Source: an uncultured Pseudomonadales bacterium
GTDB lineage: Bacteria; Patescibacteriota; Microgenomatia; UBA1400; PJMF01
Assembly (NCBI GenBank): GCA_964511345.1
Contig: CAZEEV010000002.1
Span: 66,770 to 130,769, forward strand
Direction: 5' to 3'
DNA: 64,000 bases
The translations under genes were made by a program, and so were the position numbers. Positions 1,389-47,661 of this stretch are shown here, piece after piece; position 1 is the first letter of the stretch, and every line of letters starts with the position of its first letter. The notes beneath the pieces are model-generated. The model saw only the letters and a program-made list of their open reading frames with translations. It did not search any database and was not told the DNA's origin.

Positions 1389-1423
1389 AATTTAGAAATT
1401 TAATAAGTAAAAAGGAGCGATTT

Positions 1424-1828: not shown

Positions 1829-1845
1829 TCATCAAGAATTTAGAA

Positions 1846-1876: not shown

Positions 1877-1925
1877 ATACTTAATTTTGCTTTAGGAAAA
1901 AATAAAGATATAATCTAAAAAAGAC

Positions 1926-2291
1926 ATGAAAATAATCCCACAAGCTTATGCTCAAACTAAAGAATGGTCAGAAATTGGCGCCGGTTGTGTCAGCGAAGAT
2001 GGCGTCGCCACGGTTCAAGGTTTTGGTTGCATGATGGCCAACGTGTTATCGGTCTTTTTAACCGTACTCGGCATTGTAGGATTTGTCATGATCATCTACG
2101 CAGCTTTCAACATGATGATTATGGGTGGTAATAGCCAAGCAACTGAGAAATCCAAAAATACCATTACCTATGCCATTATTGGGATTATTCTAGCCTTATC
2201 GTCTTTTATCATTATTAATCTAATTGCCAACTTCACTGGATTGGATGTGATTAAAAATTTCTCTATTCCTGGTTCTGGGAAGCAATGGTAA
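1926..2291 (+). CDS. Divergent T4SS pilin-like two-TM protein, paralog 5
   Basis: 121 aa with two hydrophobic helices separated by 'MGGNSQATEKSKNT'. It keeps the array architecture but its loop motif is degenerate. A TATAAT sits at 1909-1914 with TTGCTT 16 nt upstream. Confidence 0.45.
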   Translation: MKIIPQAYAQTKEWSEIGAGCVSEDGVATVQGFGCMMANVLSVFLTVLGIVGFVMIIYAAFNMMIMGGNSQATEKSKNTITYAIIGIILALSSFIIINLIANFTGLDVIKNFSIPGSGKQW

Positions 2292-18140: not shown

Positions 18141-18146
18141 ATTACA

Positions 18147-19517: not shown

Positions 19518-19542
19518 GAGCTGAGATATAGTGTACTAAATT

Positions 19543-20400
19543 TTAGGGCTTGATTACAAGGGGATTGATTTGCTGACCATTCAACTCGACTGTCATTTTT
19601 GGAAAAACGAGATCATCTTTTTCTACAGTGATTTGGTAACTGCCGTTTTCCAAGGGTCGATCGGTCAAGAATTTGCCATCCTGATCACTTTTCAAAACTC
19701 TTACTGTTTGCTGATTTTGATCCTTAATTTCTACGATGGCATGACCAATTTTGTGTTCACTTTTATCAATGATGGTGCCGGCAATTTGGTTTGGCAATAG
19801 CTTTTGTTCTTCACTAATTTCTTTAGGTAGTTTGAGCTTGCGCACTCTAGTTTGTAAATTGGGCTTTTCTTGTTCTGAGTTTTCTATGCTAATTTCACTT
19901 TGTTGCACTTCTACGTTATCAAACTCGTTTAGAACGGCATTGATTTTTTGATTTTCAGCTAAGTCAAATTGATCCTGACTTTTTTCACTGTCGGGAATAC
20001 TTTTGAGATATTCAAAAATACGCTGTTTGCGTGCAGGATTTAAATTAATATCTGGAGCGAAAAAATCTTCGCGAGTAGAGGTGATTTTATAATTAAAAAA
20101 ATCTGGAATTTTATTTGATTTTTTCCAGAAAAACTTAGTAGGTTTATAAATATTTTGGAAAAAAGTTTTGATCCAATGGTCAAGTGGTCTTTCTTCAACT
20201 GGCACAAAAGCAATTGCTGCTCCAAGTCCAACAATAGTAAAAACCAGTGGCCATTTTACGATGCCAATGAGATTTGTTTTATAAATAATGAAAGCCAAGA
20301 CAGCTGCTACGGCTAATTCGGCAAACTGCTTAAGAGTCATGCTTCCTACGAGATGAAACTTATAGTTGGTGATATCTTGCGGAATAGGGTGTTGTTTCAT
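19543..20400 (-). CDS. PrgI/VirB3-like T4SS membrane protein with C-terminal carboxypeptidase-regulatory-like beta domain
   Basis: N-terminus 'YKFHLVGSMTLKQFAELAVAAVLAFII…WPLVFTIVGLGAAIAFVPVEERPLDHWIKTFF' follows the PrgI-family two-TM pattern. The C-terminus 'GTIIDKSEHKIGHAIVEIKDQNQQTVRVLKSDQDGKFLTD…GSYQITV' resembles a CarboxypepD_reg fold. Confidence 0.5.
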   Translation of the reverse strand: MKQHPIPQDITNYKFHLVGSMTLKQFAELAVAAVLAFIIYKTNLIGIVKWPLVFTIVGLGAAIAFVPVEERPLDHWIKTFFQNIYKPTKFFWKKSNKIPDFFNYKITSTREDFFAPDINLNPARKQRIFEYLKSIPDSEKSQDQFDLAENQKINAVLNEFDNVEVQQSEISIENSEQEKPNLQTRVRKLKLPKEISEEQKLLPNQIAGTIIDKSEHKIGHAIVEIKDQNQQTVRVLKSDQDGKFLTDRPLENGSYQITVEKDDLVFPKMTVELNGQQINPLVIKP

Positions 20401-20448
20401 GACTTATTCCATTTTAGCAGAAAAAGCAAAGCCTTGTTTGTGCTAGAC

Positions 20449-21462
20449 TTATTTCTCTATAGCACTGGCTACGGCCGGAGTGATGATTTCTGCCTGAATA
20501 TTGATGCCGGCAGAATTAGTTAGCTTGCCGCGAAATTTGTAAAATGGATAAGCGATCTTTAGATTGCTGTCGTAGCGATATTCAATTTCTACTGAGTACA
20601 AATTAGCCTCATCAATCCAATTCAAATCAATGACCTCAACTATTTCACTGCTAGCATTGATAATAGAAGCATTGCCTTTCTTTATGTTGTTTATCGCTTG
20701 ATTAATAGATATAGCAGGCAATTGTTTGGAAATTTGAAATTCTTGGAAAAAATCACGGAAATTAACTCTTTTTAAATTGTAAAAATTATCAACTCGACAA
20801 AAAAATGGATAATCATTTTGGTTTTCATAAAAAACTTTATAACCATCAAGCTCATAAGTCAGAGGAATTTGTGCAAAAGTAGCTCTATTTTCATCAATTA
20901 TATTTTGCTCAAAGCCAGAATCTAAATAAATAATACTGTCTTTTTGTACCACTAAAGGCACTAATATATTGTATTTGCTATAAAAATTTTGGCAAACTTC
21001 GATAGCTGAGTCAGTGATAATTTTTAAATTGTTTTCACCTTCATTTTTTACTCCACTATTAAAAGTATAATAGTGTTCGTAATTATTTTTTGCTAAAGCA
21101 TGATTCTCACCAAGCCAATAATTTTCTATATTAGAATCTTTGTTTAGTTGATATTCAATAATTAATTTATTAGCCAACTCATCTGCCAAACCAGATGTAT
21201 TTTGAGCTTGGTAAATATTAAAAAATTCTGGAACAGCAATTTCCGTACCGCTAAAATCAATTTTTTTAAAAGTGCTTTGAGTGTTGTCATAATTATTAAC
21301 AACAAAGTCATTAGCAATGATTTTCTCTTCGACGGGTGTGATAATTTTGAAAATAACTGATAGAAGTAAAGCTCCTAGTATTAAAATCCCCAAAAATAAA
21401 AGAAAATTATTTTTTTTCTTTACGGGTTGATTTGTTTTAGGTGTGCTGTTGTTCATAATCAA
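20449..21462 (-). CDS. Bitopic membrane protein (N-terminal TM + ~290-aa external domain); VirB8/TcpC-like candidate
   Basis: Single N-terminal TM 'FLLFLGILILGALLLSVIF'. Size and position (between the hydrolase-like giant and the PrgI-like gene) match TcpC/Orf13-type VirB8 analogs. No sequence motif to confirm. Confidence 0.3.
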   Translation of the reverse strand: MIMNNSTPKTNQPVKKKNNFLLFLGILILGALLLSVIFKIITPVEEKIIANDFVVNNYDNTQSTFKKIDFSGTEIAVPEFFNIYQAQNTSGLADELANKLIIEYQLNKDSNIENYWLGENHALAKNNYEHYYTFNSGVKNEGENNLKIITDSAIEVCQNFYSKYNILVPLVVQKDSIIYLDSGFEQNIIDENRATFAQIPLTYELDGYKVFYENQNDYPFFCRVDNFYNLKRVNFRDFFQEFQISKQLPAISINQAINNIKKGNASIINASSEIVEVIDLNWIDEANLYSVEIEYRYDSNLKIAYPFYKFRGKLTNSAGINIQAEIITPAVASAIEK

Positions 21463-21468
21463 AAATAA

Positions 21469-24400
21469 TTAATAACAAGTCGTCACGCCCTGTCCATATT
21501 TTGGAGGATAGTTGCCGCCATCATCTTCTGGTACAAGGGTTTCAATAATAGAAAGTCCTGGATTATTAGCCATATAGAAAACTCCGTTATGAGCAGCTCC
21601 GTAATGCAGATGAACTCCATCTGAAAACCCCTTATTGCCCATTAAGCCAATCATAAACCCAGCCTCGACCTGCATACATTGATTCGGAGTGCTCAAACTA
21701 GGGTTCGGTTCTTCGAAGTGTAAAAACTGTATCTTTTGCGTTGTGCCGCCATTTTCGAAACTTAACACATAAAAACATCCCTCGCTTCCTCCACATCCCC
21801 CAAAACATAGATTTCCATCAAATGGAACATAAACTGGAGGACCGTAAAGTGCAGCCTCACCGCAACCGTTACAACCAATATCATAAGCATCCATAAAACT
21901 TAGGCCCGGTGGTTTGGAATGAGAATAATCACCATAAGGCATTTGAGATATGTGACCAGTAGCTGGCCAACACCCTGCGTCGCCTCCGCATTCACCCAAA
22001 CAAACCCTAGCGGCCGTAATGACGTTATCTGTGCCTGCCATGAAAGAATTTTGATAATAAAAATTTACCTCAATAGTGTTAAGAATAGCAGTGTTGTTGT
22101 AGTTACTACTCAGATCATCCAGGGTGTAAGTAAAAGTTAGGCTTTCTCCAGCTGGAATAATGATAAATTCGCCACCTCCAGTTTGAAAACTTGCTTCTGC
22201 AGCATCGGCATCAGTTTCTTCCTCATTTCCTGGCGCGTAACTGAGAAGGGGAGATATTTTTAGAGGCTCGCTGCTAAGCCCAACTTGTTCTTTGATGAGA
22301 TTTTGAAAATAATCGAAACCCAACTCTTTACTGCTGTCTATGCTGGGCATGGCTTGTCCGCTTTCTTCCCAACCTTTAGAACTTTGACCAAATTTAATTT
22401 GATCTTTAATATTGCTAATCTGTAAAGAAAAATCTTCTTTTGGTTTAATGGTGACGGTATATTCGATGGAAAGCGGAAATGAAGGTGAAGTACACTTAGC
22501 ACCTTCATTTTCTAAACCAATACAGCCTTTGGTGATTTTAGCTGTCTTTTCAATCGAAGCATACTTGGAGGTTTTTTCAATTGAATTGGTAATTTCTGAT
22601 TCACTAATTGGAAAATCCGTCAAAAAAGCTGAATTAAGACTGGCTTGTTGAAGAATAAAAAACAAAGCCGTGGTGCCAAAAGCAGCAGCTACTGCTTGGC
22701 TGGCAGTAACCATAGCTGAAGATGCAAATTGACTAAAAAAACCTCCGTTAGTTGGTGTTGTTTGAGAGATCACTTTGCTTTGGTTTTGTAAAGTTGCCTG
22801 ACCTCCAACGGGGGTCTGTGTGATTGTGGCTCCGCTGGCTCCACCAATAGTGTGAGTTGCCTTGCCAGCTCCCCAAATAGCATTTTTAGCACCACCACCC
22901 CCTCCGAAAATATTACGGAAAAACAAGACAGCTGGTAAAGCTAAAATTAGCCATGGTAGCATAGCTGCCAGCGCAGCAAAAATGGCACCTAGTACCAGGA
23001 TTGGCCAATTTTTTTTGACCCACTCTAGAACTTTTTCTAAACCCATTTCTATCAACTGTTCTTTGAGTTTTTTAATGATAGGCGCAGCAGCCTCTGCTGC
23101 TTTCAAAGCTTGACCCCAACCACCAGCTGCATCCAAAGCCATATAGAGGCCCTGGCTCAATGCTTTAGTGGCGAGTTTTTTACCTTGCTGACCAAGAGCA
23201 CTGTCCATCAAGCCAGTGCCTTGATAATTTCCTTGTGGATTGAAGGCTTGCTGCATGAAACCGCCACCATTAGCGTCAAAAGCACCCTCGCCAAAATTCT
23301 CTGCCATCTGCAGCATGTAGAGATCCATGGGATTGATCTGCGGGGCAATCTGATCTTGGAAAGTAACAATGTCGTATGTTTCATAGGTGACGCCAGGATT
23401 GTAGAACTCAAAGTAAATTTTGAGAGTGCTTTGTTGTTCGGCGCCAGATAATTTGCTTAATTCTTGGGTCAAAAATTTTTCTAATAGAGCCGCTTGCTGG
23501 CTTTGCCACTCTTGCATTTCTTGACTGCTTGCTCCGACTCTGCCATATAACTCATTGGTAATTTGTCCACCACCATAAGTCAAATTAAGAATGCCTAGGT
23601 TACGTAATTGAGCAAGTTTTTGTGGATCTTTTTGGATTTCTGCTAGTAATTTCTGAGCCTCTTCTGGAGTATATTTTTCAAGAGCGATTTCTTGACGAAC
23701 CTCTAGCGACCAAAGAGCTCGCTTACGTTTCCAATAGAAAATAATTAGATTGGCAAGTTCTTCTTTGTGAGCATCAAAAGCAGCTTTGTCTAGACTATTA
23801 CCAAAAATGTTAACAAATCTGTTGTAATCAAAATTTTTTGGATCGGAAATTAAAAATTCTGGCGGAAGGCCTTGCTGAATAAAAACTTCAATCAGCGGGC
23901 GCACATTGTCTATAACCAATTTTATTCTAGAATTGTCTTGATAACCAGTAATTTCTGCGATTTTTTTGGAAAAAACCTCATCTAGGTATTGTTCGTTGCC
24001 AACGACATTGAGTTCTGATTCAATCGCTTTGACAAAGTTTGGGTCAACTTTGCTTTCTTCGATCATTTGTTGAGCTGTTTCACTGTTTAAGTTTTCGTCT
24101 TTAGATTTTTCATTTTCTCGTAGCTTCTGCTCGCCATATTTAGCGATGTCGCGCACCGCGCTATTGAGCAAATTCAGGCCATAGACATCCATTAATAAGC
24201 CAAAAGCTGCCTGATTACTAAAATTAATTCTTTGTGATGGATCACTGATTAATTTATCCAGGGAAAATTGTCCTGTGAGGAGCAAATTTTCTACCTGTGA
24301 AAAAGCCCGATCCATTAATTTTTGTCTGATAGCTAATGGCAATTGGTCGAAGGTGACAACTGTACCAGGTGGCAAACCAATTTTTGCCAGCGAAGCCTCA

Positions 24401-25188
24401 TTAAAATATTTGCTTAAAGCTTGATTAATAGTGATAATCGAAAGCGATTGAAGATAAAGTCTGGATTGAGGATCGAGCTCAGCGATTTTGAGAGGGGCTT
24501 TGTCGTCTGGAGGCTTTTGATCTTTATTTCTTTGGGTTTCTTGTTTTTTATGGTCTTGATCTTGCTGTTTTTTATCTTTATCTGTTTGTGGTATAGGTAA
24601 ACCAAAACCTCCACCTCCATCACCGCTAGAACTAACTTCATCTTGTTTTTCTTCCTCAATTTTTAGTTCTTCAGAACCAATACTTGGTTTGAGAATTAGA
24701 TAAATTAACTTAATTCTATCAACGATTCTTCTTGAATAATCAAAGTATTCAATTTTTTGCAATTCTTCTACGGTAATTTTTTCACTGGCTGGATTGACAC
24801 CAATGAGTGTAAATGTACTACCTAATTTATCCAATTCTTGTCGCTGGACTGAATCCAAAGAAATGTTTTTACTACTCAGTGAAGTGCGGATTTGCTCGAT
24901 AAAATTAACTAGATCAGAAAGAAATAAGTATGGAACTTTACCTCTTGGCGGAGCAACGCCATCTAAAATGTCTTGAGCAGTGCTTAAATCAAACTCTCCT
25001 CCATAGCTAAAACCCTCAATGGCAAATTCACCCTTAACTTTTTTGTCACCAGCTGATTCGGCGTAAAAATTAGTAATCCAATTGGCACTTTTCTGCAAAA
25101 TTTCATTGATTTGTACAGCACTAAGACTATCGACGCCAGCTAATTTTTTTAGCTCAATTCGAGTATTTTGATTAATGTCTTCTGGCAT
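21469..25188 (-). CDS. 1239-aa membrane protein with Gly-rich TM region and C-terminal Cys-rich M23-peptidase-like domain (candidate T4SS cell-wall hydrolase, VirB1/TcpG/PrgK analog)
   Basis: C-terminus '…MDAYDIG…GPPVYVPFDGNL…GFMIGLMGNKGFSDGVHLHYGAAHNGVFYMANNPGLSI' parallels the M23 motifs (compare '[31 protein letters not shown]' in the LysM-M23 gene at 50527). Mid-protein TM helices are present. First gene of the minus-strand operon. Confidence 0.45.
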   Translation of the reverse strand: MPEDINQNTRIELKKLAGVDSLSAVQINEILQKSANWITNFYAESAGDKKVKGEFAIEGFSYGGEFDLSTAQDILDGVAPPRGKVPYLFLSDLVNFIEQIRTSLSSKNISLDSVQRQELDKLGSTFTLIGVNPASEKITVEELQKIEYFDYSRRIVDRIKLIYLILKPSIGSEELKIEEEKQDEVSSSGDGGGGFGLPIPQTDKDKKQQDQDHKKQETQRNKDQKPPDDKAPLKIAELDPQSRLYLQSLSIITINQALSKYFNEASLAKIGLPPGTVVTFDQLPLAIRQKLMDRAFSQVENLLLTGQFSLDKLISDPSQRINFSNQAAFGLLMDVYGLNLLNSAVRDIAKYGEQKLRENEKSKDENLNSETAQQMIEESKVDPNFVKAIESELNVVGNEQYLDEVFSKKIAEITGYQDNSRIKLVIDNVRPLIEVFIQQGLPPEFLISDPKNFDYNRFVNIFGNSLDKAAFDAHKEELANLIIFYWKRKRALWSLEVRQEIALEKYTPEEAQKLLAEIQKDPQKLAQLRNLGILNLTYGGGQITNELYGRVGASSQEMQEWQSQQAALLEKFLTQELSKLSGAEQQSTLKIYFEFYNPGVTYETYDIVTFQDQIAPQINPMDLYMLQMAENFGEGAFDANGGGFMQQAFNPQGNYQGTGLMDSALGQQGKKLATKALSQGLYMALDAAGGWGQALKAAEAAAPIIKKLKEQLIEMGLEKVLEWVKKNWPILVLGAIFAALAAMLPWLILALPAVLFFRNIFGGGGGAKNAIWGAGKATHTIGGASGATITQTPVGGQATLQNQSKVISQTTPTNGGFFSQFASSAMVTASQAVAAAFGTTALFFILQQASLNSAFLTDFPISESEITNSIEKTSKYASIEKTAKITKGCIGLENEGAKCTSPSFPLSIEYTVTIKPKEDFSLQISNIKDQIKFGQSSKGWEESGQAMPSIDSSKELGFDYFQNLIKEQVGLSSEPLKISPLLSYAPGNEEETDADAAEASFQTGGGEFIIIPAGESLTFTYTLDDLSSNYNNTAILNTIEVNFYYQNSFMAGTDNVITAARVCLGECGGDAGCWPATGHISQMPYGDYSHSKPPGLSFMDAYDIGCNGCGEAALYGPPVYVPFDGNLCFGGCGGSEGCFYVLSFENGGTTQKIQFLHFEEPNPSLSTPNQCMQVEAGFMIGLMGNKGFSDGVHLHYGAAHNGVFYMANNPGLSIIETLVPEDDGGNYPPKYGQGVTTCY

Positions 25189-28520: not shown

Positions 28521-30203
28521 TTATGATTTTTCTTTAGGTGGGCTAGTTCCTCCATTTTTATTGACATATTTTCCTATCATGGCTCCAAGATCTTCTGCTT
28601 CAAAACCTCTTCCTTCTAGCACTTTATTTACCTGCACCCTTATGTTCTTTCCTCTTTCAAATCCGCTAGAAAGTCCACCTTGAGTATCTTCAGTTGCTTT
28701 GCCAGTAACACCGCCATATGACTTAATTATTTTATTATTATCATCTCTTCGATCATATCCTCCAAAGAAGGCACCCACCCTCTCTCTTAAGGTAGCATTT
28801 TTAAAGTCTTTTCCATAGGCCGCTCCAGCTCTAATTCCTCCAACTAAACCCTCTACTCCAGACGTTATAGCTGGCGCAGCTATTGTGCTTTCTTTGATTC
28901 TACCTACTGCATCTTTAGCTAACTGTCCAAACACTCCATCTTCGACACCCATGGCTTTTTTGGCCTGTTGTAAAATTTCTGGAATCACTAACAATATGCC
29001 AATACCAAGAATGACAGGAATAATTTCTCCTTGTCCCTGACCAACTAAGAATGGAGGCATAAAACCTCCGCCAAAACTGCTGCTGATTTCTCCAGTGCCC
29101 ATCATGGCGCGCATGGGGGCAGTTAGCATTCTTTGTACCAAAATACACAGTAACACTATTGGCCAGAGGATCAGATTGCCGGCTAGATTTTTAATCCATT
29201 TAACAAAGGAGTTTTTACCAGGAAAAGCTCCAAGCATTAAAATAATAGGTGAGAAAATAATTTGAATTAAAACTGACACATAGCTTTTAACTAACTCAAA
29301 GAAAATCTTGAAGGTAGCAAAAAGAATTGCTAAGCCAACAATCATGGTAGCAACCAAGCTAGATAGCCAGGTAAGAGCCTGACCTACAAAACTAATATTC
29401 AGAGCATCATCCATAAAAGATTTAATAGCCATTTGCGTCCCGCTTGTGCCACTAAAAATCAAACCAATTAAGCCAAAGATGTTGCGGGTAATAATGTCCG
29501 AGCCTTCATTAAAATACCCAGCAACGACATACATAATTACATACATGAGATCGATCATGAAACCAGCAATGGCGTAAGAAAAAGTTACTGCTAACATGGC
29601 AACAATAACACTTGGAATAGCTTGCTGAGCGGTAATGGCTGCCTGGCCAACCTTGGTTCTAAACATAATCATAAAACCAATAATCAAGAAGATAACGACA
29701 AAAAATAAATAGGCTAAATTACGAAAGGCTTTCCAAGTTTCTAGAATTGGATCCAGAGCGGAAAAACCAAGACCCTGGGCTTGAGCTTCTGGAACAATTT
29801 TGGCAGATTCCATCAAATCGGCAACATAAGTACGGGCGCTGGCAGGTGGAGTGTAAAGTGCAACGATACCACTATTAATATCTCCTAAGACGCCATAACC
29901 AATTTCTTTTTCCAAAATCTTTCTGTCTGATTCAGAAAGATCAGCGCTTTGTGGGATGGATGACATGCCGATAGTGTGTAAATTAATATTAGTGATGATA
30001 TTAGAAAAGCCCTCAGCATCAAACTTTTCTTTATCAGCGCTACTGCTACCAAAAGATTGGACGCTTTTAGCCGTTGAATCGTTAGTGAAAATTCCTCTCA
30101 ACCAATCGCCAATAGATGCTTGAGCTGGCTTAGCTGACATCAAGAAACAGGAAAAGACAAAGAAAACAATTAACAATAGGCGAGAGGTTTTTATCTGCGT
30201 CAT
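28521..30203 (-). CDS. Polytopic membrane protein, VirB6/TrbL-like candidate (signal peptide + periplasmic segment + 6-8 TM + hydrophilic tail); track start 30317 probably too early, likely start ATG at 30203 (MTQIKTS…)
   Basis: Signal peptide '…SAKPAQA/SIG', then multiple long hydrophobic helices (for example 'ALTWLSSLVATMIVGLAILFATFKIFFELV'). This is the VirB6-like topology. Confidence 0.4.
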   Translation of the reverse strand: MTQIKTSRLLLIVFFVFSCFLMSAKPAQASIGDWLRGIFTNDSTAKSVQSFGSSSADKEKFDAEGFSNIITNINLHTIGMSSIPQSADLSESDRKILEKEIGYGVLGDINSGIVALYTPPASARTYVADLMESAKIVPEAQAQGLGFSALDPILETWKAFRNLAYLFFVVIFLIIGFMIMFRTKVGQAAITAQQAIPSVIVAMLAVTFSYAIAGFMIDLMYVIMYVVAGYFNEGSDIITRNIFGLIGLIFSGTSGTQMAIKSFMDDALNISFVGQALTWLSSLVATMIVGLAILFATFKIFFELVKSYVSVLIQIIFSPIILMLGAFPGKNSFVKWIKNLAGNLILWPIVLLCILVQRMLTAPMRAMMGTGEISSSFGGGFMPPFLVGQGQGEIIPVILGIGILLVIPEILQQAKKAMGVEDGVFGQLAKDAVGRIKESTIAAPAITSGVEGLVGGIRAGAAYGKDFKNATLRERVGAFFGGYDRRDDNNKIIKSYGGVTGKATEDTQGGLSSGFERGKNIRVQVNKVLEGRGFEAEDLGAMIGKYVNKNGGTSPPKEKS

Positions 30204-30301
30204 AAGACAAGTATATTTTAGATGAAGAGCGGAAAAACTGCAAAGGTAAACTTGATAATTTAACTTGACAACTGGCTTAAAAACATTTAAAACAATCATA
30301 A

Positions 30302-31105
30302 ATGATCGATCAAGCACAAACTGATAAATTCAAGAACATTTTAGAGCTTAGTCAAAATATTTTAGTCATTTTTCCAGAAAGCAAAGATCTTGATTTGTTT
30401 TTAGCCAGTTATTGTTTTTATGCTTTTTTGAACACTAAAAAAGGCGTGCGCTTGTTAACTCCAAAGTTAATTCAGCCGATTCCTCGTAATTTAACCAATC
30501 TCATCGCTATTAAACAAATCGAAACTGAACTTGGCAAAGAAAATTTAATTGTTAGTTTCCCTTATCAGGAAAATCAAGTTGATAAGGTTTCTTATTATAT
30601 TGGTGAAAATGATAAGCGTTTTTATTTAACCATCAAACCTAAAAAAGGATCCACACCGCTTACTAGTTCTCAGGTGGAATTTTCTTATGCCGGTACTCAG
30701 GCAGACTTATTGATTTTATGTGGAGTAGAAGAGTTAGAGAGTTTACAGCAATTATATTTTGCCTACGAAAACTTATATAAGGGAACTGATAATCATTTGG
30801 TCAGTATCAATGATTTTATTCCCGATTTTGGCAAGCTTAATTTGGATATTTCTCCCAGTAGTTCTTATTGTGAAGCTTTGTTTTATTTACTGCAGGATTT
30901 GGATTCGGAAAGCGAAGAAATATTGTCTCAGAATTATTTGTCCACCTTATTACTTTATGGGATAGAGTTCAAAACCAAAGGTTTGCAATCCCCTGAAACT
31001 AGTATTAGCACATTTTTAGCTGTAGCTTCTTTATTGAAATTGGGAGCGCAACGACTCTTCCAGAGAACCCCTAAAACTAAAGTCCGGCCTCGTTCAACAA
31101 AATAG
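30302..31105 (+). CDS. Degenerate DHH-family (NrnA-like) protein lacking the DHH catalytic residues
   Basis: 'ILELSQNILVIFPESKDLDLFLASYCFYAFL' aligns in register with the NrnA N-terminus (…IILHRHVRPDPDAYGS…), but its His and Asp residues are replaced. 'YAGTQADLLIL' is similar to 'YAGIVGDTGRF'. Confidence 0.3.
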   Translation: MIDQAQTDKFKNILELSQNILVIFPESKDLDLFLASYCFYAFLNTKKGVRLLTPKLIQPIPRNLTNLIAIKQIETELGKENLIVSFPYQENQVDKVSYYIGENDKRFYLTIKPKKGSTPLTSSQVEFSYAGTQADLLILCGVEELESLQQLYFAYENLYKGTDNHLVSINDFIPDFGKLNLDISPSSSYCEALFYLLQDLDSESEEILSQNYLSTLLLYGIEFKTKGLQSPETSISTFLAVASLLKLGAQRLFQRTPKTKVRPRSTK

Positions 31106-33938
31106 CAGTGGCAAGTGCGCCGGGTCTTTGCCATGCTGGGTACTTATTGCCATTGCTTAAACTCTGACAGTTGCTTGAGTTAGCAAAGCAATATTGTTTT
31201 GCTTGGTCAATTAGTTCTTCTTTGGTGGCATCATCGACTTGTTTTTCGTCAAGACTGCTGCGCAGTTCAGAAATTACAGCATCAGTTGGATTAACTTCAC
31301 AATTAAATTCTACGTAATCTACACAGAAAATTAAATCCATGTCAGTGTGGCGCTCATCAATCCAAGCCATAGGGTAAGGATGGTCTTCTGAACTAAACTT
31401 TGAAGGACATTTGCCATTATTGGCCCAGCGAGTGTCTTTATCACAATTTTGGTTACCAGTGCCATTGTAGGCACCAATAGCTGTGACTAATGCCTCATAC
31501 TCAATGTTATTACGATCAAAATTACCGCCAAATTTATCAATCAAATGTTGCATGGCGGCTTTGGCGTCTTCTTTTAAGGAGCCATTCCTAATTTCACCGC
31601 CATCAAAGACCGAACGGGTAGGACTTGATCCAGCTTCATTCCAATGAATGCCAGCTACGATTTCACAAGGAATGCCAGTTTCTTTTTCAGCGTATTCGTA
31701 AGCCTCCATCACTTCCGCAGTCATGCCTGGGGCGATGTCTGCCACAAAATAATCTTTGGCAAATTGTGGAATTTGTGTTGCACTTGGTATATTTTTAATA
31801 TTCTTAAAAGCTTCGCCTGTGCAGGCCGCTAGAGTAGAGCTACCTTGTGGGCGGCCGCTGCAGCGCCCTAAGAACATATCTTCCACCCTGGTACATGAAG
31901 CAATGTAGTTATAGGTTTGGTTGTAAGAGTTACGTAATTTTTGTTGGATTTTGCGTATTAAAAATCCCAGACCAAAGTCTGGAAGTAAGACGTTGTTTTC
32001 TGGTTCTTCTAGGTTAACACCAACAGTGTAATTTTTACAGACACGGACATTTTCTACATATGGCACGCCTTTGGAGTCATATTTGATCACTTCTTCATAG
32101 CGACACTCATCAAGTGGGCTAATAGAATCAGAACCATCAATACCTACTTCAGCATTTTTGATGGTGTAATACTTAGGAATAACTCCTGCCTTATTGTCCA
32201 TGTCCTCAATAACATTAGTGCGAACAGTATTAAAAAACTCTTCTTCATTCCAAAAAATACTCAGAGCTTTGTTAGCATCTTTAATGGCTTCACCTACTGG
32301 TAAAACAAGGTAGGCGTTAACAATGACTTGTTCATCTAATTTTGGTGGATTGCTATCGATTACTAATTGCCAGTTAAAGGCATTTACATCTTGAGAAAGT
32401 AATTGATCAGCGATTTTTTGATTATTTTGATTTTTATAATTGTAATCTTTGATATCTTTAGAAGCCGGAGTGAAAAGATCGCCAGCTTTTTCAAAATTAA
32501 CATCCTCTTGATTGAAAATGTCTTCAATATTGGCACTTGCAGTGGCGCTAACTGTTGAACCAGCATTTGAGTCACTCTCTTCTTCAACGATCCTCAAAGT
32601 AGTGTTTTGACAATTAGGAGCTGTGCCATTGATAACGTCGATTAGAACATTATTAAGAGCATTTTGGTCGCTTCTGCTACATTGCGGATAAGAAGCGGGA
32701 CATTTAATCAGTGAATCACTTGAATATGGAGCTTCTTTGGCTGATTCATAGACTGCAATTCTTTTCTTATCCTGATTTTCAATGTCTAATTGATTTTGCT
32801 CGCTAGATTGCAAAGCCATTTTAACTATTTCTAAGGTGTCTATATTGCCAGCGAGTTTAGATTTGTTAGTACCAAATTCTGGAATTTTAAAAGCAATAAT
32901 AATTGGGGCATGTACATCATCATTCACTTGGGGACTAGACTGCAAAAAATGAAAGTTGTCATTGCTTTCATTTTTGTTTTGCTTTGGAACTAAAACCAAA
33001 AAAGCTAGTCGATATAATGAGTCTAGATCAATACTAACAGCTCTAATAGCTTCTCGAGCTTTGGCAATTTCATCTATACTCGCTGACAAGGCCGGTTGAT
33101 TTTGATTTTCCTCATCGCCACCACTAAATAAATCAGAGCACACCTGAGGATATAATTCTTCCTCACTGGTTTGAGGACGAAGATTTTTGAGCCAATCTAA
33201 TAAAGTTTGACTGTTAAAAGCTACGTTCAATCGATGCTCTTCAGCTGATAAAGTTTCTGACTCACTAATTGCTCGACTATTTCCTGCTGCATCCACGGCA
33301 ATTGGGAAATCAAATTCTTTATCTAATATGCACTTATCATTTGCGACTTGCGCACAAATTTTTGTTATGGCTGCTAAGTTTTGAGTTTTAGCCAAACATT
33401 GCTGATAAGAAGAAAGCAATCTCTGGCTAATTCCTGAAGCATTAAGCATGTATTGATCTCCAACAGTTTGAAAATCAGCGCCAAACATACCTTCAAAAGA
33501 ACTATTTTTCAAAGTTTCAGTTTTTGGCTCTAAACCTCTAAAAAGAGGAATACGTGCCTTGGAAAAATCAACTACATAATCATTTGCGCCACCAAAAATA
33601 GTTGGATTGAGTCCTTGATAAAAACTTTCTTCAGGTGGGACGCTGCTGCTAAAAAATTTATCAATATCACCCCAGATTTTCTTATCAATGACCCATTGCG
33701 CGCCTCCACAGTGAGCCTCGTAACCCTGATCTTTGACCATAGTGGAGAGTAAATCTTCATAAGCTAAGCCCAAGCTTGATGAAGAAATAAACATCGGCAT
33801 AAGAGTGTAGTTGGTGCTCTCATCAGTAACTTGAGTTTCACTACTTTGGGCAAAAACTAAATTTGAAAAATTACAAAAAAACAGCAGATTAGCAAAGAGC
33901 ACGCCGGCAATTATTTTTTTACACAAACGACTTAGCAC
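31077..33938 (-). CDS. 953-aa secreted protein with C-terminal SLT/lysozyme-like domain candidate
   Basis: Signal peptide '…LVFA/QSS'. C-terminus '…IVAGIHWNEAGSSPTRS…AKAAMQHL…AIGAYNGTGNQ' echoes the SLT motifs (E-S…GLMQ…AYNAG). Confidence 0.35.
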   Translation of the reverse strand: MLSRLCKKIIAGVLFANLLFFCNFSNLVFAQSSETQVTDESTNYTLMPMFISSSSLGLAYEDLLSTMVKDQGYEAHCGGAQWVIDKKIWGDIDKFFSSSVPPEESFYQGLNPTIFGGANDYVVDFSKARIPLFRGLEPKTETLKNSSFEGMFGADFQTVGDQYMLNASGISQRLLSSYQQCLAKTQNLAAITKICAQVANDKCILDKEFDFPIAVDAAGNSRAISESETLSAEEHRLNVAFNSQTLLDWLKNLRPQTSEEELYPQVCSDLFSGGDEENQNQPALSASIDEIAKAREAIRAVSIDLDSLYRLAFLVLVPKQNKNESNDNFHFLQSSPQVNDDVHAPIIIAFKIPEFGTNKSKLAGNIDTLEIVKMALQSSEQNQLDIENQDKKRIAVYESAKEAPYSSDSLIKCPASYPQCSRSDQNALNNVLIDVINGTAPNCQNTTLRIVEEESDSNAGSTVSATASANIEDIFNQEDVNFEKAGDLFTPASKDIKDYNYKNQNNQKIADQLLSQDVNAFNWQLVIDSNPPKLDEQVIVNAYLVLPVGEAIKDANKALSIFWNEEEFFNTVRTNVIEDMDNKAGVIPKYYTIKNAEVGIDGSDSISPLDECRYEEVIKYDSKGVPYVENVRVCKNYTVGVNLEEPENNVLLPDFGLGFLIRKIQQKLRNSYNQTYNYIASCTRVEDMFLGRCSGRPQGSSTLAACTGEAFKNIKNIPSATQIPQFAKDYFVADIAPGMTAEVMEAYEYAEKETGIPCEIVAGIHWNEAGSSPTRSVFDGGEIRNGSLKEDAKAAMQHLIDKFGGNFDRNNIEYEALVTAIGAYNGTGNQNCDKDTRWANNGKCPSKFSSEDHPYPMAWIDERHTDMDLIFCVDYVEFNCEVNPTDAVISELRSSLDEKQVDDATKEELIDQAKQYCFANSSNCQSLSNGNKYPAWQRPGALATAILLNEAGL

Positions 33939-33965: not shown

Positions 33966-34871
33966 CTAGGAAAGAATGCGAATCCCAAAGATGATTTCTA
34001 GCAATTGCGCAATCCAATAAGCGGCAAATAACAAAATAAAACCGATAATAGCTGAGGTAATTTTTTGCTTACCTTCTTCAAGAGACTTAGAATTATTAGC
34101 TCCAGCAAGCATTTGAAAACCACCCAGTAGCAGAACAACAAAGAGAATTATGCCAGCAATGGGGAAAACAAAACTTTTTAGTGCTTTGGAAATGATTCCT
34201 CCTGGAGTGGAGAGACTGGCGTCACCACTAGCGATTTTAAGAGGATTTAAACGGTCTAAAGTTCCTTGATCAACTTCGATATCATTAACAGCTGAATCAG
34301 TATTTCTACATTTGCCATCGCGTAACCAACCACAGCAGGTTTTACCCGCATTTTCTCCCTCAGTGATTGGGGTTCTGCCACTACCTCCTCCACAAATACA
34401 CTGTTGGTCAGAATTAGGATCGTAAACATCTCCACAATAAACATCATTGGCGCCTGGAGGAGCGGTTAAACATTGAGTGAAATCGTCATTGGTAAATCCG
34501 CAACAAAGTCCCCTTTTACTGGTCCATTGGTTAATCCAATATGACTCAAGTTGGCCTCCTTCGCAGTTACAAGTAAATCCTCTTGGATTAGATTTATCTG
34601 CCGATCCCAATGTTTGTCCACAACTCAGTTCTTTTTCTAAAACCAGGCATTGATCATTTTCAACAAATCCACAACAATAGGCATATGATAGTCCAACACT
34701 ACCTACTTTCTCAAGGTGATTGTTATTTCTATCACACTGACATAAGGTTTCTTCGTCTACGTCTTCAAATCCACCAGAGTACCATTCTCCACAGCCAATT
34801 GCTTTCACAGTATTTATCGACAAAACTATGAAAATTATTTGCAATAATAAAGTTTGAACAATTTTTTTCAT
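33966..34871 (-). CDS. Cys-rich secreted protein fused to a C-terminal T4SS-pilin-like two-TM hairpin (candidate minor pilin/tip adhesin)
   Basis: Signal peptide, about 28 Cys in the N-domain, and C-terminus 'GIILFVVLLLGGFQMLAGANNSKSLEEGKQKITSAIIGFILLFAAYWIAQLL'. That is the same TM-loop(…SKS.E..K.KI..AIIG)-TM layout as the array at 1..2291. Confidence 0.5.
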   Translation of the reverse strand: MKKIVQTLLLQIIFIVLSINTVKAIGCGEWYSGGFEDVDEETLCQCDRNNNHLEKVGSVGLSYAYCCGFVENDQCLVLEKELSCGQTLGSADKSNPRGFTCNCEGGQLESYWINQWTSKRGLCCGFTNDDFTQCLTAPPGANDVYCGDVYDPNSDQQCICGGGSGRTPITEGENAGKTCCGWLRDGKCRNTDSAVNDIEVDQGTLDRLNPLKIASGDASLSTPGGIISKALKSFVFPIAGIILFVVLLLGGFQMLAGANNSKSLEEGKQKITSAIIGFILLFAAYWIAQLLEIIFGIRILS

Positions 34872-35761
34872 TATGATTCTCCAAAGCCTGGTATATGTAA
34901 AATTTCTACTCCAATAAATTGCAAAATAGTTACGGAAAAAATCACAAACAACAAGCCAATAATAGCAGAAGTAATAATTTCTTTGGCTTCTTTGGTTTTA
35001 TTCGGATCACCTTGAGAAACAGAGAGCATAAACGAGCCGACTAGAATCATGATCAAAACAATACCGCCACCAGCTGCTAGACCAATGGTAATGATGGTTT
35101 TAATTACACTCTCTGGATTACTTGGAATACAACCAACTGCTGTCCAAATGCCACTGGTTCTGAAACATGCTTCACAGGCCTGATATTGATCGGTATTTTT
35201 ATCGATTTGAGAACACAATTCATAGCTGGCAAATGAATCTAAATTGGTCTTACATTGAGTATCGTCGCTACCGCATTGAGCCATAGCAGGTGAAGAAATA
35301 GGGTAGTTGATCACATTTTTCTTGGTGTCAGTGACACTACCAGCATTTTTAGGTAATTCAACCATGATTTGATAGGTACAATTTTGTTTGACAAATTCAT
35401 CTCCAACATAGACAAAAATACCGCCATTTTCTACTTCGATTGGAGCTGGATCATTTCCTCCTTGCCAAAGTACCTCACCTTGACACCCTGTTCCTTGTGG
35501 AAGAAAGGCTAAATTAATACTTTCTCCATCTGGGAACGGTGTGCCATTGTTATAAGCAATACCACTTAGTTTAATATAGACACCCGTACCAGCCTGAACG
35601 CAACTATTAAAAAAATTGCATTTTTTATCGCCTCTTTCTTGGTAAATGTTGACCGTTTCGATAATTGGTTCTGGAGTTGCAGCAAAAACATTTTTTGCAC
35701 TCAGCGAAAAAAAAGAACTAATCAGCAAAAACACTAGAGCTATTTTTTTCATTTTCGTCAC
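34871..35761 (-). CDS. Secreted protein (signal peptide, beta-rich N-domain with ~10 Cys) fused to C-terminal T4SS-pilin-like hairpin
   Basis: C-terminus 'GGGIVLIMILVGSFMLSVSQGDPNKTKEAKEIITSAIIGLLFVIFSVTILQFIG'. Its stop overlaps the next gene's start at 34871. Confidence 0.5.
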   Translation of the reverse strand: MTKMKKIALVFLLISSFFSLSAKNVFAATPEPIIETVNIYQERGDKKCNFFNSCVQAGTGVYIKLSGIAYNNGTPFPDGESINLAFLPQGTGCQGEVLWQGGNDPAPIEVENGGIFVYVGDEFVKQNCTYQIMVELPKNAGSVTDTKKNVINYPISSPAMAQCGSDDTQCKTNLDSFASYELCSQIDKNTDQYQACEACFRTSGIWTAVGCIPSNPESVIKTIITIGLAAGGGIVLIMILVGSFMLSVSQGDPNKTKEAKEIITSAIIGLLFVIFSVTILQFIGVEILHIPGFGES

Positions 35762-35821
35762 CTCTATATTAAATCATTAAACGCCATTAAAACCAAGCTT
35801 TTATTATAGTAGAATAAAAGC

Positions 35822-37546
35822 ATGTTTCGCATGCCCGTCTTTCGCAAGCTATTCTTTTTGTTATTTTCATTGACCCTGATTGTCGCTGTTCTATTTTCGA
35901 ATTTATTTATCGATAACCAGAGAGTGGAGGCATTGTCAGATGTAGAAAAGTTGCAGCAAGACATAGACGAATTAGAGAATCTTAAAAAACTTTCCGAAAA
36001 TGCTACCACTCCTCTCGAAAAAGAAGTAGCAAACCTTGAGGCACGAATTAACTCTGCCAGAGCAGGCATTGCCAAGGCTAAAACTCAAGCTCAGGAATTA
36101 GCCAGAAACATCGAAAAAAGAGAAGGGGATTTAACTTATCACTATCAACTATTCGCTAATCGCGTTTCTGAATCTTATAAGAGAGAACGTACTTTTAACC
36201 CTTTAGCTCTCTTTCTTTCCAGTCAAAACGCTAGCAAATTAACCAAAGATTTAGCTTACAAGGAATCAGCTCGTGCTCAGGATGATCGTTTAATTAGATC
36301 ACTCTCTGGAGAGATTGCTCAACTAAATACTGATAAAAAACAATTAGAATCCGATCAAATTCGTTTAGCGGCGCTCTCAGAACAATTAGACAAACAAGCA
36401 GACTTTTTTAAGGGTGAAATCGCCAAAGCAAAGGCATATCAGAGTGAATTGAGTGGACAGATTGCAGCTTTATCAGCTAAGCAGCAATCCATTTTATCAG
36501 AAAAATCTGGCACTTTTCAAACAACTGTTGGTGATGTGCCGTTGGCTGATGATGCAGCCAGTCGCCCAGATTACAAGCCAGGCTTTTCACCAGCTTTTGC
36601 GGTTTTCAGTTTTGGCGCTCCACATTTTAAAGGTATGAGTCAGTACGGTGCTTTGGGTAGAGCTAAAAGTGGGCAGAATTACGAAAAAATTCTCAAAGCA
36701 TATTATGGTAGTGGTATAGAAATTAAAACAGTTGATGCTAATCAAAAAATTAAAGTCGATGGTTATGGCTCTTATTCTTTAGAAGATTATGTTAAAAGAA
36801 TCTATGAAGTGCCTAATAGTTGGGGAGACGATGGTGGAATGGAAGCCCTCAAGGCTCAGGCAGTGGCGGCTCGCAGTTATGTTCTAGCTAGAGGAGGATC
36901 AATTTGTGCTACCGAAGCTTGTCAAGTTTTCAAACCAAATGCAAAAGGAGGAAATTGGGAAAAAGCTGTTAATGAAACTAAAGGAAAAGTGGTTTACGCT
37001 AACGGTAAACCATTTTCAACTTGGTATGCTTCCACATCTGGTGGATATCAAGAATCTTACTCTTCAAATGGTTATTCAACCCCAGGATTTTGGGATACTG
37101 CTGATGGACGTAATGGTTGGACCTCCAAAGCTTATGAAAAAATTGCTGGATCGCCATGGTTCTACAAAGCTTGGTATAAAACTAGATCTGGAGATGCTTG
37201 TGGTAGAAATCATCCTTGGTTAAATAGTGAGGAAATGGCAGATATTTTGAATGCTTGGGTAGTAATGTACAAAGGTGGTGGGGATAGTAGTAGAGTCACT
37301 CCAGAATCATCTTGTTGGGGTGGCAATCCTTATAGTAAGAGTGATCTTAAAAATATTGGTGGTTACAGTAGTGTCAGCGGAGTAAGTGTTAAATATTCTA
37401 ATGACGGTGTTACTGCAGAAGTTACTTTTCAAACAAATAAAGGTAGTTTAACCATCAAAGGTAATGAATTCTATAAAACCTTCAACCTAAGGGCTCCTGG
37501 CAGAATCTCTGTTAAATCTGGACTATTTAATATTGAGAAAAAATAA
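35822..37546 (+). CDS. SpoIID/LytB-domain protein with N-terminal membrane anchor and ~200-aa coiled coil
   Basis: SpoIID signatures 'APHFKGMSQYGALGRA' and 'AQAVAARSYVLAR'. The N-terminal heptad-rich segment is EKLQQDIDELENLKK…. Confidence 0.7.
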   Translation: MFRMPVFRKLFFLLFSLTLIVAVLFSNLFIDNQRVEALSDVEKLQQDIDELENLKKLSENATTPLEKEVANLEARINSARAGIAKAKTQAQELARNIEKREGDLTYHYQLFANRVSESYKRERTFNPLALFLSSQNASKLTKDLAYKESARAQDDRLIRSLSGEIAQLNTDKKQLESDQIRLAALSEQLDKQADFFKGEIAKAKAYQSELSGQIAALSAKQQSILSEKSGTFQTTVGDVPLADDAASRPDYKPGFSPAFAVFSFGAPHFKGMSQYGALGRAKSGQNYEKILKAYYGSGIEIKTVDANQKIKVDGYGSYSLEDYVKRIYEVPNSWGDDGGMEALKAQAVAARSYVLARGGSICATEACQVFKPNAKGGNWEKAVNETKGKVVYANGKPFSTWYASTSGGYQESYSSNGYSTPGFWDTADGRNGWTSKAYEKIAGSPWFYKAWYKTRSGDACGRNHPWLNSEEMADILNAWVVMYKGGGDSSRVTPESSCWGGNPYSKSDLKNIGGYSSVSGVSVKYSNDGVTAEVTFQTNKGSLTIKGNEFYKTFNLRAPGRISVKSGLFNIEKK

Positions 37547-45516: not shown

Positions 45517-47661
45517 CTACAAATTCCTTTTTTTTGCGTATCTTTCGCGACTATTGCGAATCACTTTTTCACGATTTTGGTTACTGCTTTTGGCAAGATT
45601 CAGAGTGTAAGCGGGGAAAGGTCGACTCAAAACATTGTCAATGGAAATCTTATTAATGATTTGATATTTGTCCAAATTAACTAAGTCGTCTTGGGTATAT
45701 AAACCACCATACTCAGACTGGAAATAGGTAGCGTCGCCAGCGCCCATCACGAAACTCATAATATTGCCGCAGTTGCCGAAAATAGCATGACGAACTTCCT
45801 CTGGAATTTGGTCAATGTACTGGTTGGCTAAAATCAAATTAAGATGATATTTGCGGGCTTCAGAGAGAATTTTAATGAAAGCATCAGTAGCGAAGTTTTG
45901 AAATTCATCAACATAGAGATAAAAATCACGACGTTTTTCTTCTGGAATATTAACTCGAGCCATGGCAGCTAATTGAATCTTAGTAATCATCATTGCGCCA
46001 AGTAGAGTGGCATTATCTTCACCGAGACGACCTTGGGATAAATTGACCAGCAAGATTTTACCTTGGTTCATCAATTCCTCAATGCTGAAAGATGATTGAG
46101 TGGTATTCACTACATTGCGCACAATTGGCGAAGAAACAAATTGGCCAACTTTATTAAGAATTGAAGCGATTGATTCATTGCGTTGGCGCTCTTGCATTTT
46201 ATTGTATTCATTTAGCCAAAAGTTTTTCAAAATTGGATCATCTAGCTTTTCGACAATGGCGTCACGGAATTTTTTATTGGTTAATAAATCTAACACATCA
46301 GATAGTTTGGCCTCTGGACTTTTAAGTAAAGTTAATAAGCAATTGCGTAAAATATATTCAAGTCTTGGACCCCAAGAGTAACTGTAGAGTTTTTGAAAAA
46401 CCGAAATAATACCTGAAGCAATTAATTCGCGATGAACGACATTTTCACCTTCAAAAAGGTTAATTTGCACAGTGCGTTCTTGATCAGCTGGATCAAAGTA
46501 AATAACATCGTTAATGCGGTGTTTAGGAATGTAATTTAATAACGTTTCTACTAAATCACCATGAGGGTCGATGACACACATACCTTCGTTGTGTTTTAAA
46601 TCGTTAATAGCCATGTTAGCTAAGAGGGTAGATTTACCGGTGCCAGTTTTACCAATGACATAGAGGTGACGACGACGATCATGGCGTAATAAGCCATATT
46701 TAATGTTGCGATTTTTGTAAACTGTTTCGGCTACGACATTAATATTCTGTTTGATTTCATCAGGAGTATCTTGATTAACGATGGGTAAATTTTCCGGAGC
46801 TTCACCGAGTAGTTTCTTACCCCAGGAAATGTTGGGAATATTGGCAAGTTTTTTACTGGGCAAATGAAAGAGAGTAGCAATTTCTTCTAAACTGAGATTC
46901 AGATTGGGTGAAGCGACGAAATTGCGCTGCCTCATTCTTTTTAAGAAAGTATTTTTAAACAAATATCTGTTTTGTAATTGCAAAGCATTGCCCTCACTTT
47001 GAGAAATAGCCTGGTAGGCAGCAGCTACATTTTCCAAAATAAGCTTGCTTTTTTTACGATCATTAGTGGCGACGGCAATTTTGAAAGCAGTGCGCAGTGA
47101 TCTCTTGTCTAATTTTTGAGCAATGAGGCTTTTTTGGGGATGAGCCTCAAGTTTTTCACTAGAAATTTGTGTTCCTTTAGCCCAGAAAGAATCTTCATTG
47201 TCCAAAATCATTTGAATTAAGATTGTGTCATCGCCTTCGTTTTTGGATAAAGTTGACATTAGGGTTGAGAGAGGATCAATTTCTTTAAAATCGCCATAAG
47301 TTTTAAGAGGTAAATAGCTATGATTTTTAAGTTTCAGGCTGGCCACACGTTTTTGACTTGCTTGATCCATGAAAAAATCTACTGGATCAAAGGATAATTC
47401 CGTCATAACCGCTTGTGGATAGCTAGCGTGCAGAGCACCTTTGAAATACTCTAGTAAACGCAAGGGCACATGAGCTAAAAAATGAATGCTTTGTTGATGA
47501 ACTAAAATTTCAAAGCTCAAACTTTCTGTTTTGTTCAGTAAACGATGAAAGAAATTGTTTTTCAGATTAGGTAAAGTAGAGAAAAGCTGCACTGCTGTTT
47601 CTGGCGTTTCTTCACTATCTTTGCTGGTTCTAATCTCAAGTAAAAGATGGTTTTTTAGCAC
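45517..47661 (-). CDS. VirD4/TraG/TrwB-family (or HerA/FtsK-type) P-loop ATPase without N-terminal TM; T4SS coupling-protein candidate
   Basis: 'RRHLYVIGKTGTGKSTLL…MCVIDPHGD' gives Walker A plus a DPKGE-like motif. 'FYLYVDEFQNFA' is Walker B and 'ILANQY' follows. The ~330-aa N-domain is unique. Confidence 0.5.
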   Translation of the reverse strand: MLKNHLLLEIRTSKDSEETPETAVQLFSTLPNLKNNFFHRLLNKTESLSFEILVHQQSIHFLAHVPLRLLEYFKGALHASYPQAVMTELSFDPVDFFMDQASQKRVASLKLKNHSYLPLKTYGDFKEIDPLSTLMSTLSKNEGDDTILIQMILDNEDSFWAKGTQISSEKLEAHPQKSLIAQKLDKRSLRTAFKIAVATNDRKKSKLILENVAAAYQAISQSEGNALQLQNRYLFKNTFLKRMRQRNFVASPNLNLSLEEIATLFHLPSKKLANIPNISWGKKLLGEAPENLPIVNQDTPDEIKQNINVVAETVYKNRNIKYGLLRHDRRRHLYVIGKTGTGKSTLLANMAINDLKHNEGMCVIDPHGDLVETLLNYIPKHRINDVIYFDPADQERTVQINLFEGENVVHRELIASGIISVFQKLYSYSWGPRLEYILRNCLLTLLKSPEAKLSDVLDLLTNKKFRDAIVEKLDDPILKNFWLNEYNKMQERQRNESIASILNKVGQFVSSPIVRNVVNTTQSSFSIEELMNQGKILLVNLSQGRLGEDNATLLGAMMITKIQLAAMARVNIPEEKRRDFYLYVDEFQNFATDAFIKILSEARKYHLNLILANQYIDQIPEEVRHAIFGNCGNIMSFVMGAGDATYFQSEYGGLYTQDDLVNLDKYQIINKISIDNVLSRPFPAYTLNLAKSSNQNREKVIRNSRERYAKKRNL

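Follow-up and report, generated by a model that had tools for sequence, protein, structure and literature searches.

Two pilin-family proteins with secreted ectodomains, encoded by a conserved gene pair in a patescibacterial type IV secretion gene region

The locus analysed here raises the question of whether pilins of a type IV secretion system (T4SS) can carry large secreted domains and, if so, what such proteins would do for the cell. It lies in a stretch of 64,000 nucleotides (nt; the window) of contig CAZEEV010000002.1 from assembly GCA_964511345.1 (positions 66,770–130,769, forward strand), labelled as an uncultured Pseudomonadales bacterium and classified by GTDB in the Patescibacteriota (Microgenomatia; UBA1400; PJMF01). 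Two open reading frames (ORFs) on the minus strand of the window are concerned: ORF A (33966–34871, 301 amino acids, aa) and ORF B (34871–35761, 296 aa when read from a GTG codon). A first-pass annotation, made from the sequence alone, had proposed them as candidate pilus-tip adhesins; its coordinates for both ORFs were recovered on the minus strand, together with their one-base overlap at 34871, where the stop and start codons are joined as TAATG. In the only patescibacterial species in which this was tested, the T4SS proved essential; its role has been called 'completely unknown' (PMC11665869). Its pilin arrays are the sole hint that a monoderm T4SS makes a pilus.

Pilin modules joined to secreted domains

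Both proteins were matched by the Pfam model PF18895 (T4SS_pilin; gathering cut-off 26.6 bits), with whole-protein scores of 36.1 bits for ORF A and 28.7 bits for ORF B, and their isolated modules (81 and 84 aa) scored 40.3 and 32.0 bits, respectively. As controls, residues were permuted within the pre-helix, first transmembrane (TM1), loop and TM2 segments, four times for each protein, and none of the resulting 8 composition-matched hairpins gave a PF18895 match at E ≤ 10. The C-terminal hairpins thus score better against the pilin model than random two-TM anchors, a comparison that the first-pass annotation had called for. By hydropathy, both C-termini consist of two hydrophobic stretches with a short Lys-rich loop between them, and in AlphaFold2 (AF2) models, for which the input alignments contained 88 and 91 sequences, the hairpins of both proteins take the form helix-loop-helix (34 and 35 residues). 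They align gaplessly, over both helices, with those of five complete short pilins encoded in an array at 232–2291 (plus strand; 112–138 aa each; PF18895 30.8–43.5 bits), and the motif G..(S/D)xK..E(G/A)(K/R)..I(T/S)xAIIG(L/F), spanning the loop and helix 2, is common to ORF A, ORF B and the short-pilin hairpins; this alignment and the PF18895 matches agree with the earlier view that the pair and the array share one TM-loop-TM module. The gene context is also that of the family, T4SS genes being nearby in the window and the genes being contiguous with pilin arrays in four related loci (L039, L044, L061 and L076; see below). At the level of sequence, it is established that both proteins are members of PF18895 in which a secreted ectodomain is fused to a genuine pilin module, and we read them as specialised 'long' members of this patescibacterial VirB2-like pilin family.

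Each ORF begins with a type I signal peptide followed by a region of about 190 aa, as expected from the earlier description of secreted N-domains preceding the hairpins. In ORF A the signal peptide (residues 1–24, cut site TVKA|IGCGE) is of the ordinary AxA type, and the mature N-terminal part, which is beta-rich in the AF2 model (mean predicted local distance difference test, pLDDT, 84), consists of three six-Cys modules only (residues 27–75, 84–134 and 146–188). A conserved linker (residues about 191–222, LNxLNP...LSTPGGII) leads to the PF18895 hairpin at 223–295, with helices at 223–256 and 261–295. Each module has the pattern CG-x(n)-CxC-x(n)-CCG(F/W)-x(n)-C, and the three tandem copies account for all 18 Cys; the figure of about 28 Cys given previously was too high. 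Across 33 homologues with three repeats, none of the 18 Cys varies, nor does the Gly after each CG and CC, and relatives with 1, 2, 3 or 4 modules (6, 12, 18 and 24 Cys) were seen.

A phmmer search of 1.84 billion representative proteins with the ORF A ectodomain gave 8 matches. Five are pilin-module proteins, four of them already in family A (ORF A and its relatives) and one, P0229, new and with five repeats; the other three, an ankyrin, a Kelch and a 3688-aa repeat protein, were rejected as carriers of the module, being repeat or composition artefacts. In this search, therefore, the six-Cys module was found solely alongside the pilin hairpin, and we regard it as a newly defined module of disulfide type, with putative disulfides, which appears to be confined to pilins.

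ORF B likewise has an ordinary AxA-type signal peptide (residues about 1–27, cut site NVFA|ATPEP), which is followed by a beta-sandwich (residues 33–152, pLDDT >93 in the AF2 model), a six-Cys neck (residues 163–211, ending in GIWTAVGCIP) and the PF18895 hairpin at 216–287 (helices 216–248 and 253–287; mean pLDDT of the model 83). Foldseek searches of the PDB with ORF B gave weak matches of immunoglobulin (Ig), fibronectin type III (FN3) and nanobody type (E 3e-3 to 2e-2, target-normalised template-modelling scores 0.3–0.5), which weakly suggest that the modelled N-domain is an Ig-like sandwich but are too poor to name a family. Ten Cys were counted and the model is beta-rich, both as described in the first-pass annotation. 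Of the two lengths given there, 301 aa stands for ORF A, while the 296 aa of ORF B should be shortened: the true start is probably the ATG at 35752, giving 293 aa, because a GAGGTG sequence sits 7 nt before this codon and P0107, a database protein identical to ORF B, has 293 aa.

Neither protein contains an LPxTG sorting signal or a lipobox, and the class III signal of type IV pilins (G at -1, E at +5) with its N-terminal hydrophobic helix was not found in either. The two ectodomains matched no Pfam or NCBIfam family, and in ten larger relatives (445–543 aa) no Pfam match was obtained for the ectodomains, the pilin module alone being recognised, often below threshold. The first-pass annotation had raised the possibility that the N-domains are enzymes; no enzyme signature was found by Pfam in ORF A, ORF B or these ten relatives, and the hypothesis that the pilins display enzymes was rejected for want of a catalytic domain in any of them.

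A gene pair conserved across Patescibacteria

Homologue searches returned 106 proteins for ORF A and 291 for ORF B, most of them with a precomputed PF18895 match. All the named homologues are called 'hypothetical protein', except for a 186-aa match to ORF B that is labelled as a YidC-type insertase (JGI). Gene neighbourhoods were scanned in one genome per GTDB species, and 80 loci were kept, from Pacebacteria, Microgenomates, Woesebacteria, Paceibacterota and other patescibacterial metagenome-assembled genomes (MAGs). The taxon labels of L006 (CP011212.1) and of many records with CAZ and CAY accessions, among them 'candidate division TM6', 'uncultured Pseudomonadales', 'Limisphaerales' and 'Methylococcaceae', do not fit their patescibacterial gene content and are apparently the result of mislabelling or mis-binning.

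A second pilin-module gene directly follows ORF B, in what is here called the A position, in 76 of the 80 loci, so that the search for the same fusion in other patescibacterial genomes, suggested in the first-pass annotation, found the ORF B–ORF A pair to be recurrent. On the other side, a SpoIID-like gene diverges from ORF B in 74 of the 80; in the window it encodes a secreted protein of 574 aa (35822–37546, plus strand; Pfam SpoIID PF08486, 5.2e-14) and is the conserved divergent neighbour of ORF B. In 31 of the 80 loci the pair continues as it does in the window, into the gene for a roughly 950-aa protein, then an oppositely oriented DHH-like gene and the gene for a polytopic membrane protein of some 550 aa, and on long contigs the same gene order was present at 57% and at 41–48% identity.

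Up to ten short pilin genes come directly after ORF B and ORF A in L039, L044, L061 and L076 and also in L036, L048 and L068. The pair makes up genes 1 and 2 in contiguous arrays of 11–12 pilin genes in L039 (2782–9874), L044 (4550–11645), L061 (5596–12824) and L076 (5221–11436), and the same array occurs in L074 (7–6168), where ORF B is truncated by the contig end. The order and the lengths of the array members are kept between genomes, and the best hairpin matches fall on members of similar length, which suggests that the arrays are ordered sets of distinct paralogues building a defined heteromeric structure and not interchangeable antigenic variants.

The proteins vary widely in size, B-type proteins having about 210–507 aa and A-position proteins about 100–543 aa, values shorter than these stemming from ORFs truncated at the ends of contigs. 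Across the loci, the A-position ectodomains contain 0 to 42 Cys, in most cases a multiple of six, as would fit A-position proteins carrying zero to about seven six-Cys modules. In close families, the hairpins are 87% (ORF A) and 86% (ORF B) identical to those of the window proteins, and the ectodomains 30–48% (ORF A) and 31% (ORF B sandwich), a pattern that would be typical of an assembly module joined to an interaction surface. Of the twelve hairpins compared in a second clade, that of A again has the highest conservation (64–78% identity). That both hairpins stand out uniquely from the array pilins by their conservation is true of A; for B it is not clear-cut.

Two near-identical genomes differ at the A position. 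In L044 (5710–6714) the ORF has 334 aa and encodes both a Cys-rich domain and a linker rich in Pro and Thr, and in L039 (4044–4735) there is a 377-nt gap followed by a pilin of 104 aa without ectodomain; the C-terminal part shared by the two proteins is 91% identical and the hairpin 97%. The difference reflects either a recent loss or gain of the ectodomain or an error of MAG assembly. When the plasmids of PLSDB were searched by tblastn with ORF A and ORF B, no match was obtained, and this search therefore gives no evidence that the two genes travel on known plasmids.

In the window, ORF A and ORF B stand at one end of the T4SS gene region, 14–18 kb from the VirB4-like and PrgI genes in the same strand block, and the layout of the T4SS genes beside dnaA matches that published for Patescibacteria (PMC12102498). 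Taken with the synteny, this arrangement shows ORF B and ORF A to be a conserved gene pair belonging to the T4SS/pilin gene set. It is highly improbable that the hairpin is no more than a convenient two-TM anchor and that the two are ordinary cell-surface proteins independent of the T4SS: the pilin signature is sequence-specific and is gone on shuffling, the hairpins share homology with those encoded in the array, other lineages have the pair directly adjoining the array, and a hairpin conservation of about 87% is far beyond the needs of a passive anchor, even though a helical hairpin is structurally generic and, in the window, distances of about 16 kb and about 32 kb separate the pair from the VirB4-like gene and the short-pilin array, respectively.

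Possible roles of the long pilins

In the F- and T-pilus structures, both termini of the VirB2-type pilin face outward. Pilins of this type are held in the membrane by the hairpin with the termini outside and the basic loop inside (PMC12857230). Our favoured reading, to which we give a probability of about 0.5, is that ORF A and ORF B are minor pilins that co-assemble with the short pilins and display their ectodomains on a pilus-like structure. By analogy with VirB2, Sec export and cleavage of the signal peptides would leave the two hairpins embedded in the cytoplasmic membrane, both of their ends facing outward and the Lys-rich loop facing the cytoplasm. Outside the cell there would then be a disulfide-stabilised stack of six-Cys modules (ORF A) and an Ig-like sandwich with its Cys neck (ORF B). 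The T4SS, by means of the VirB4-like ATPase and a VirB6-like platform, may extract both proteins, along with the short pilins, into a polymer resembling a pilus. If ORF A and ORF B were assembly primers they would come to lie at the distal tip, since T4SS pili grow from the base, and their ectodomains could there contact the host cell or its wall. A function as pilus-tip adhesins would be plausible by analogy.

A low copy number is favoured on two grounds. By our rough estimate, each subunit of a five-start VirB2 lattice offers an outer surface of about 7 nm2, which is too small for a domain of 20–25 kDa on every subunit, and there are one ORF A and one ORF B gene to many short pilins. These figures also bear on the alternative that ORF A and ORF B are shaft subunits coating the whole fibre, alone or mixed with short pilins, in the manner of the outer domains of flagellin. 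Outward VirB2-type termini would allow an N-terminal domain to be displayed anywhere along the shaft, and the N-terminal extensions of the array pilins vary (total lengths 100–220 aa), making ectodomain size a continuum; nevertheless, with so little surface for each subunit and with a single conserved copy of each gene at the head of the array against the many short pilins, we consider a coated shaft improbable.

The strict synteny of the pair with the SpoIID-like peptidoglycan-remodelling gene, joined in this lineage by the genes for the 953-aa secreted protein and a polytopic membrane protein, would agree with another arrangement, in which ORF A and ORF B are fixed parts of the base. Their hairpins would then lie in the cytoplasmic membrane or in a short wall-spanning stalk, and the ectodomains would form a collar or scaffold in the zone of the wall, working with the SpoIID-like and 953-aa proteins in opening or lining a passage through the peptidoglycan. 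The very high conservation of the hairpins would suit contacts with conserved parts of the machine, the ordered sets of about 12 distinct paralogues suggest a defined heteromeric structure and not a homopolymeric fibre, and Gram-negative VirB2 is needed even without a pilus (PMC12857230). However, fast divergence, a varying number of repeats and an ectodomain that is gained or lost at the A position are unexpected for a collar on the cell's own conserved wall, and no peptidoglycan-binding or enzyme domain was detected with Pfam in ORF A, ORF B or the ten larger relatives. A place in the base is the main alternative for the two proteins, but we hold it to be doubtful.

Several points weigh against the two being minor pilins of a filament. 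As regards filament formation by PF18895 proteins, a review goes no further than a 'potential to elaborate conjugative pili' (PMC12857230). Compared with the VirB2/TrbC model PF04956 (cut-off 27.9 bits), ORF A remained below the cut-off, with 16.8 bits for the whole protein and 20.3 bits for the isolated module (E 6.5e-4), and ORF B gave no match; profiles of family A, family B and the window pilins retrieved no solved pilin from the PDB sequences. In the second clade, the B hairpin shows 47–63% identity, a level also seen among the array pilins. Moreover, the A-position protein is without any ectodomain in some lineages, and the ectodomain is hence dispensable to the role of the A hairpin. 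Matches to membrane proteins and to titin in the PDB profile searches of families A and B were dismissed as spurious, and fold searches with the hairpins returned generic helical hairpins only. The kinship of ORF A and ORF B with the solved VirB2/TraA pilins rests on Pfam curation, gene context and the literature.

The likeness to the VirB2/TrbC/TraA pilins of PF04956 lies in the signal peptide, the two hydrophobic helices, the short basic loop, the T4SS locus and a topology that places the N-terminus at the outer face of the fibre. The differences are that similarity is sub-threshold, that the organism encoding ORF A and ORF B is a monoderm, and that the mature proteins begin with a large folded domain in place of a few residues. 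The only NCBIfam model to touch the hairpins was NF045849, the Mbov_0395 family from integrative and conjugative elements (ICEs) of Mycoplasma, which also comprises small pilin-like hairpins of a monoderm conjugation system; however, the scores of 18–22 bits are far below its cut-off of 40, and the ICE proteins have about 80 aa and no ectodomain. The minor or tip pilins found in type IV pili and in the pseudopili of type II secretion resemble ORF A and ORF B in combining a conserved polymerisation module with a variable globular domain and in being clustered with pilins, but their module is unrelated, being in type IV pilins a lone N-terminal helix that bears a prepilin-peptidase signal, whereas ORF A and ORF B have a C-terminal helix-loop-helix, an ordinary signal peptide and the reverse domain order, so that the resemblance is one of analogy.

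If the two are minor pilins, one may go a step further and ask whether ORF B and ORF A are the patescibacterial counterpart of VirB5, that is, a primer of pilin fold which starts on the VirB6-like platform, rides on the tip and bears exchangeable ectodomains that choose a host cell or surface polymer. We think this rather unlikely. VirB5/TraC has the role proposed here, being a low-copy protein that nucleates the pilus on VirB6 and ends at the tip as an adhesin (PMC12857230); it differs in being soluble and helical and in lacking a pilin hairpin, whereas the candidate adhesin here would itself be a pilin, and the comparison is again an analogy, no homology being detected (no Pfam or NCBIfam match of ORF A or ORF B to the VirB5/TraC families at E ≤ 1). 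According to a review, VirB5 has not been found in the T4SSs of Gram-positive bacteria, an exception being made for Patescibacteria only as regards VirB2-like pilins (PMC12857230), and no adhesins, including those of the PrgB type, were detected in patescibacterial T4SSs (PMC12102498). With no VirB5 counterpart or adhesin reported for these systems (PMC12102498, PMC12857230), the phylum-wide and positionally fixed ORF B–ORF A pair provides concrete candidates for the host-contact end of the T4SS. Should the VirB5 analogy be true, the pair would be the first tip adhesin made of a globular domain fused to a pilin of VirB2 fold, and a determinant of host range for a large share of uncultured bacteria.

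The PF18895 pilins as such are already known. Patescibacterial arrays of 2–11 pilin genes have been described in 383 assemblies (Quinonero-Coronel et al. 2025, PMC12102498), and in Southlakia, where the array of Southlakia epibionticum is SEML1_0014-0019, the pilins are essential (PMC10633639). ORF A and ORF B share with these arrays the Pfam family, the phylum and the set of T4SS genes near dnaA, and have probably been counted in the survey of 383 assemblies as 'VirB2-like pilins'. In contrast to the described pilins, which are short, sequence-divergent hairpins, they have ectodomains of about 190 aa (in relatives up to about 450 aa), a fixed place beside the SpoIID-like gene and, in family A, a private six-Cys repeat. 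The papers examined on the patescibacterial arrays (e.g. PMC12102498) make no mention of ectodomain-bearing pilins, of the SpoIID-B-A arrangement or of the six-Cys module, and the claim of novelty in the first-pass annotation is reasonable in this light, 'no adhesins' being the published statement (PMC12102498). What is new is the ectodomain-bearing pair, by which the family is extended.

Genes surrounding the pair

The 60 bp between ORF B and the divergent SpoIID-like gene (35762–35821) contain a TATAAT-like box and the GAGGTG ribosome-binding site, and are likely the promoter region of a transcript covering ORF B, ORF A and possibly the gene for the 953-aa protein. This last gene (31077–33938, minus strand) is directly downstream of ORF A on the same strand, with a gap of 27 nt and no predicted terminator, and is probably co-transcribed with it. 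Its product is secreted and has many conserved Cys, and a homologue is present in 31 of the 80 related loci. The first-pass annotation had called the protein 'SLT-like' (SLT, soluble lytic transglycosylase). Its C-terminal consensus HWxExG...AIGxYNGxGNxNC, read by eye, recalls motifs of lytic transglycosylases, but there was no match at E ≤ 1 in Pfam and NCBIfam, SLT and lysozyme-like models included, nor in the PDB with a 28-sequence profile; the label was therefore rejected as a finding and left as a motif-level lead.

Further downstream, a DHH-like gene (30302–31105, plus strand, 267 aa), whose position is kept in related genomes, overlaps the ends of both flanking genes on the opposite strand. 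The second of these encodes a polytopic membrane protein of 598 aa (28521–30317, minus strand), which is syntenic with the block of ORF B, ORF A and the 953-aa gene and whose position is kept in relatives. This protein had no Pfam match and is a candidate for the VirB6-like platform.

The core T4SS genes, assigned by Pfam, occupy 15990–25188 on the minus strand and adjoin dnaA (14319–15896), the window carrying housekeeping genes as well. They comprise the genes for a VirB4-like ATPase (15990–18140), a PrgI/VirB3-like protein (19543–20400) and a 1239-aa protein with an M23 peptidase domain (21469–25188), with a 456-aa ORF between the first two and a 337-aa ORF between the last two, all on the minus strand. 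A coupling-protein-like ATPase (45517–47661, minus strand; TrwB_AAD_bind, TraG-D_C) is encoded about 10 kb from ORF B and ORF A, apart from the VirB4 block. According to a published survey, most patescibacterial T4SS clusters are without relaxases (PMC12102498).

At the left end of the window, immediately upstream of the first complete short pilin, a partial ORF of 67 aa (26–229, plus strand) contains a hydrophobic stretch, and the short-pilin array probably extends past the window start. The right end is taken up by an ORF of 2391 aa (56801–63976, minus strand), and the G+C content of the window is 37%.

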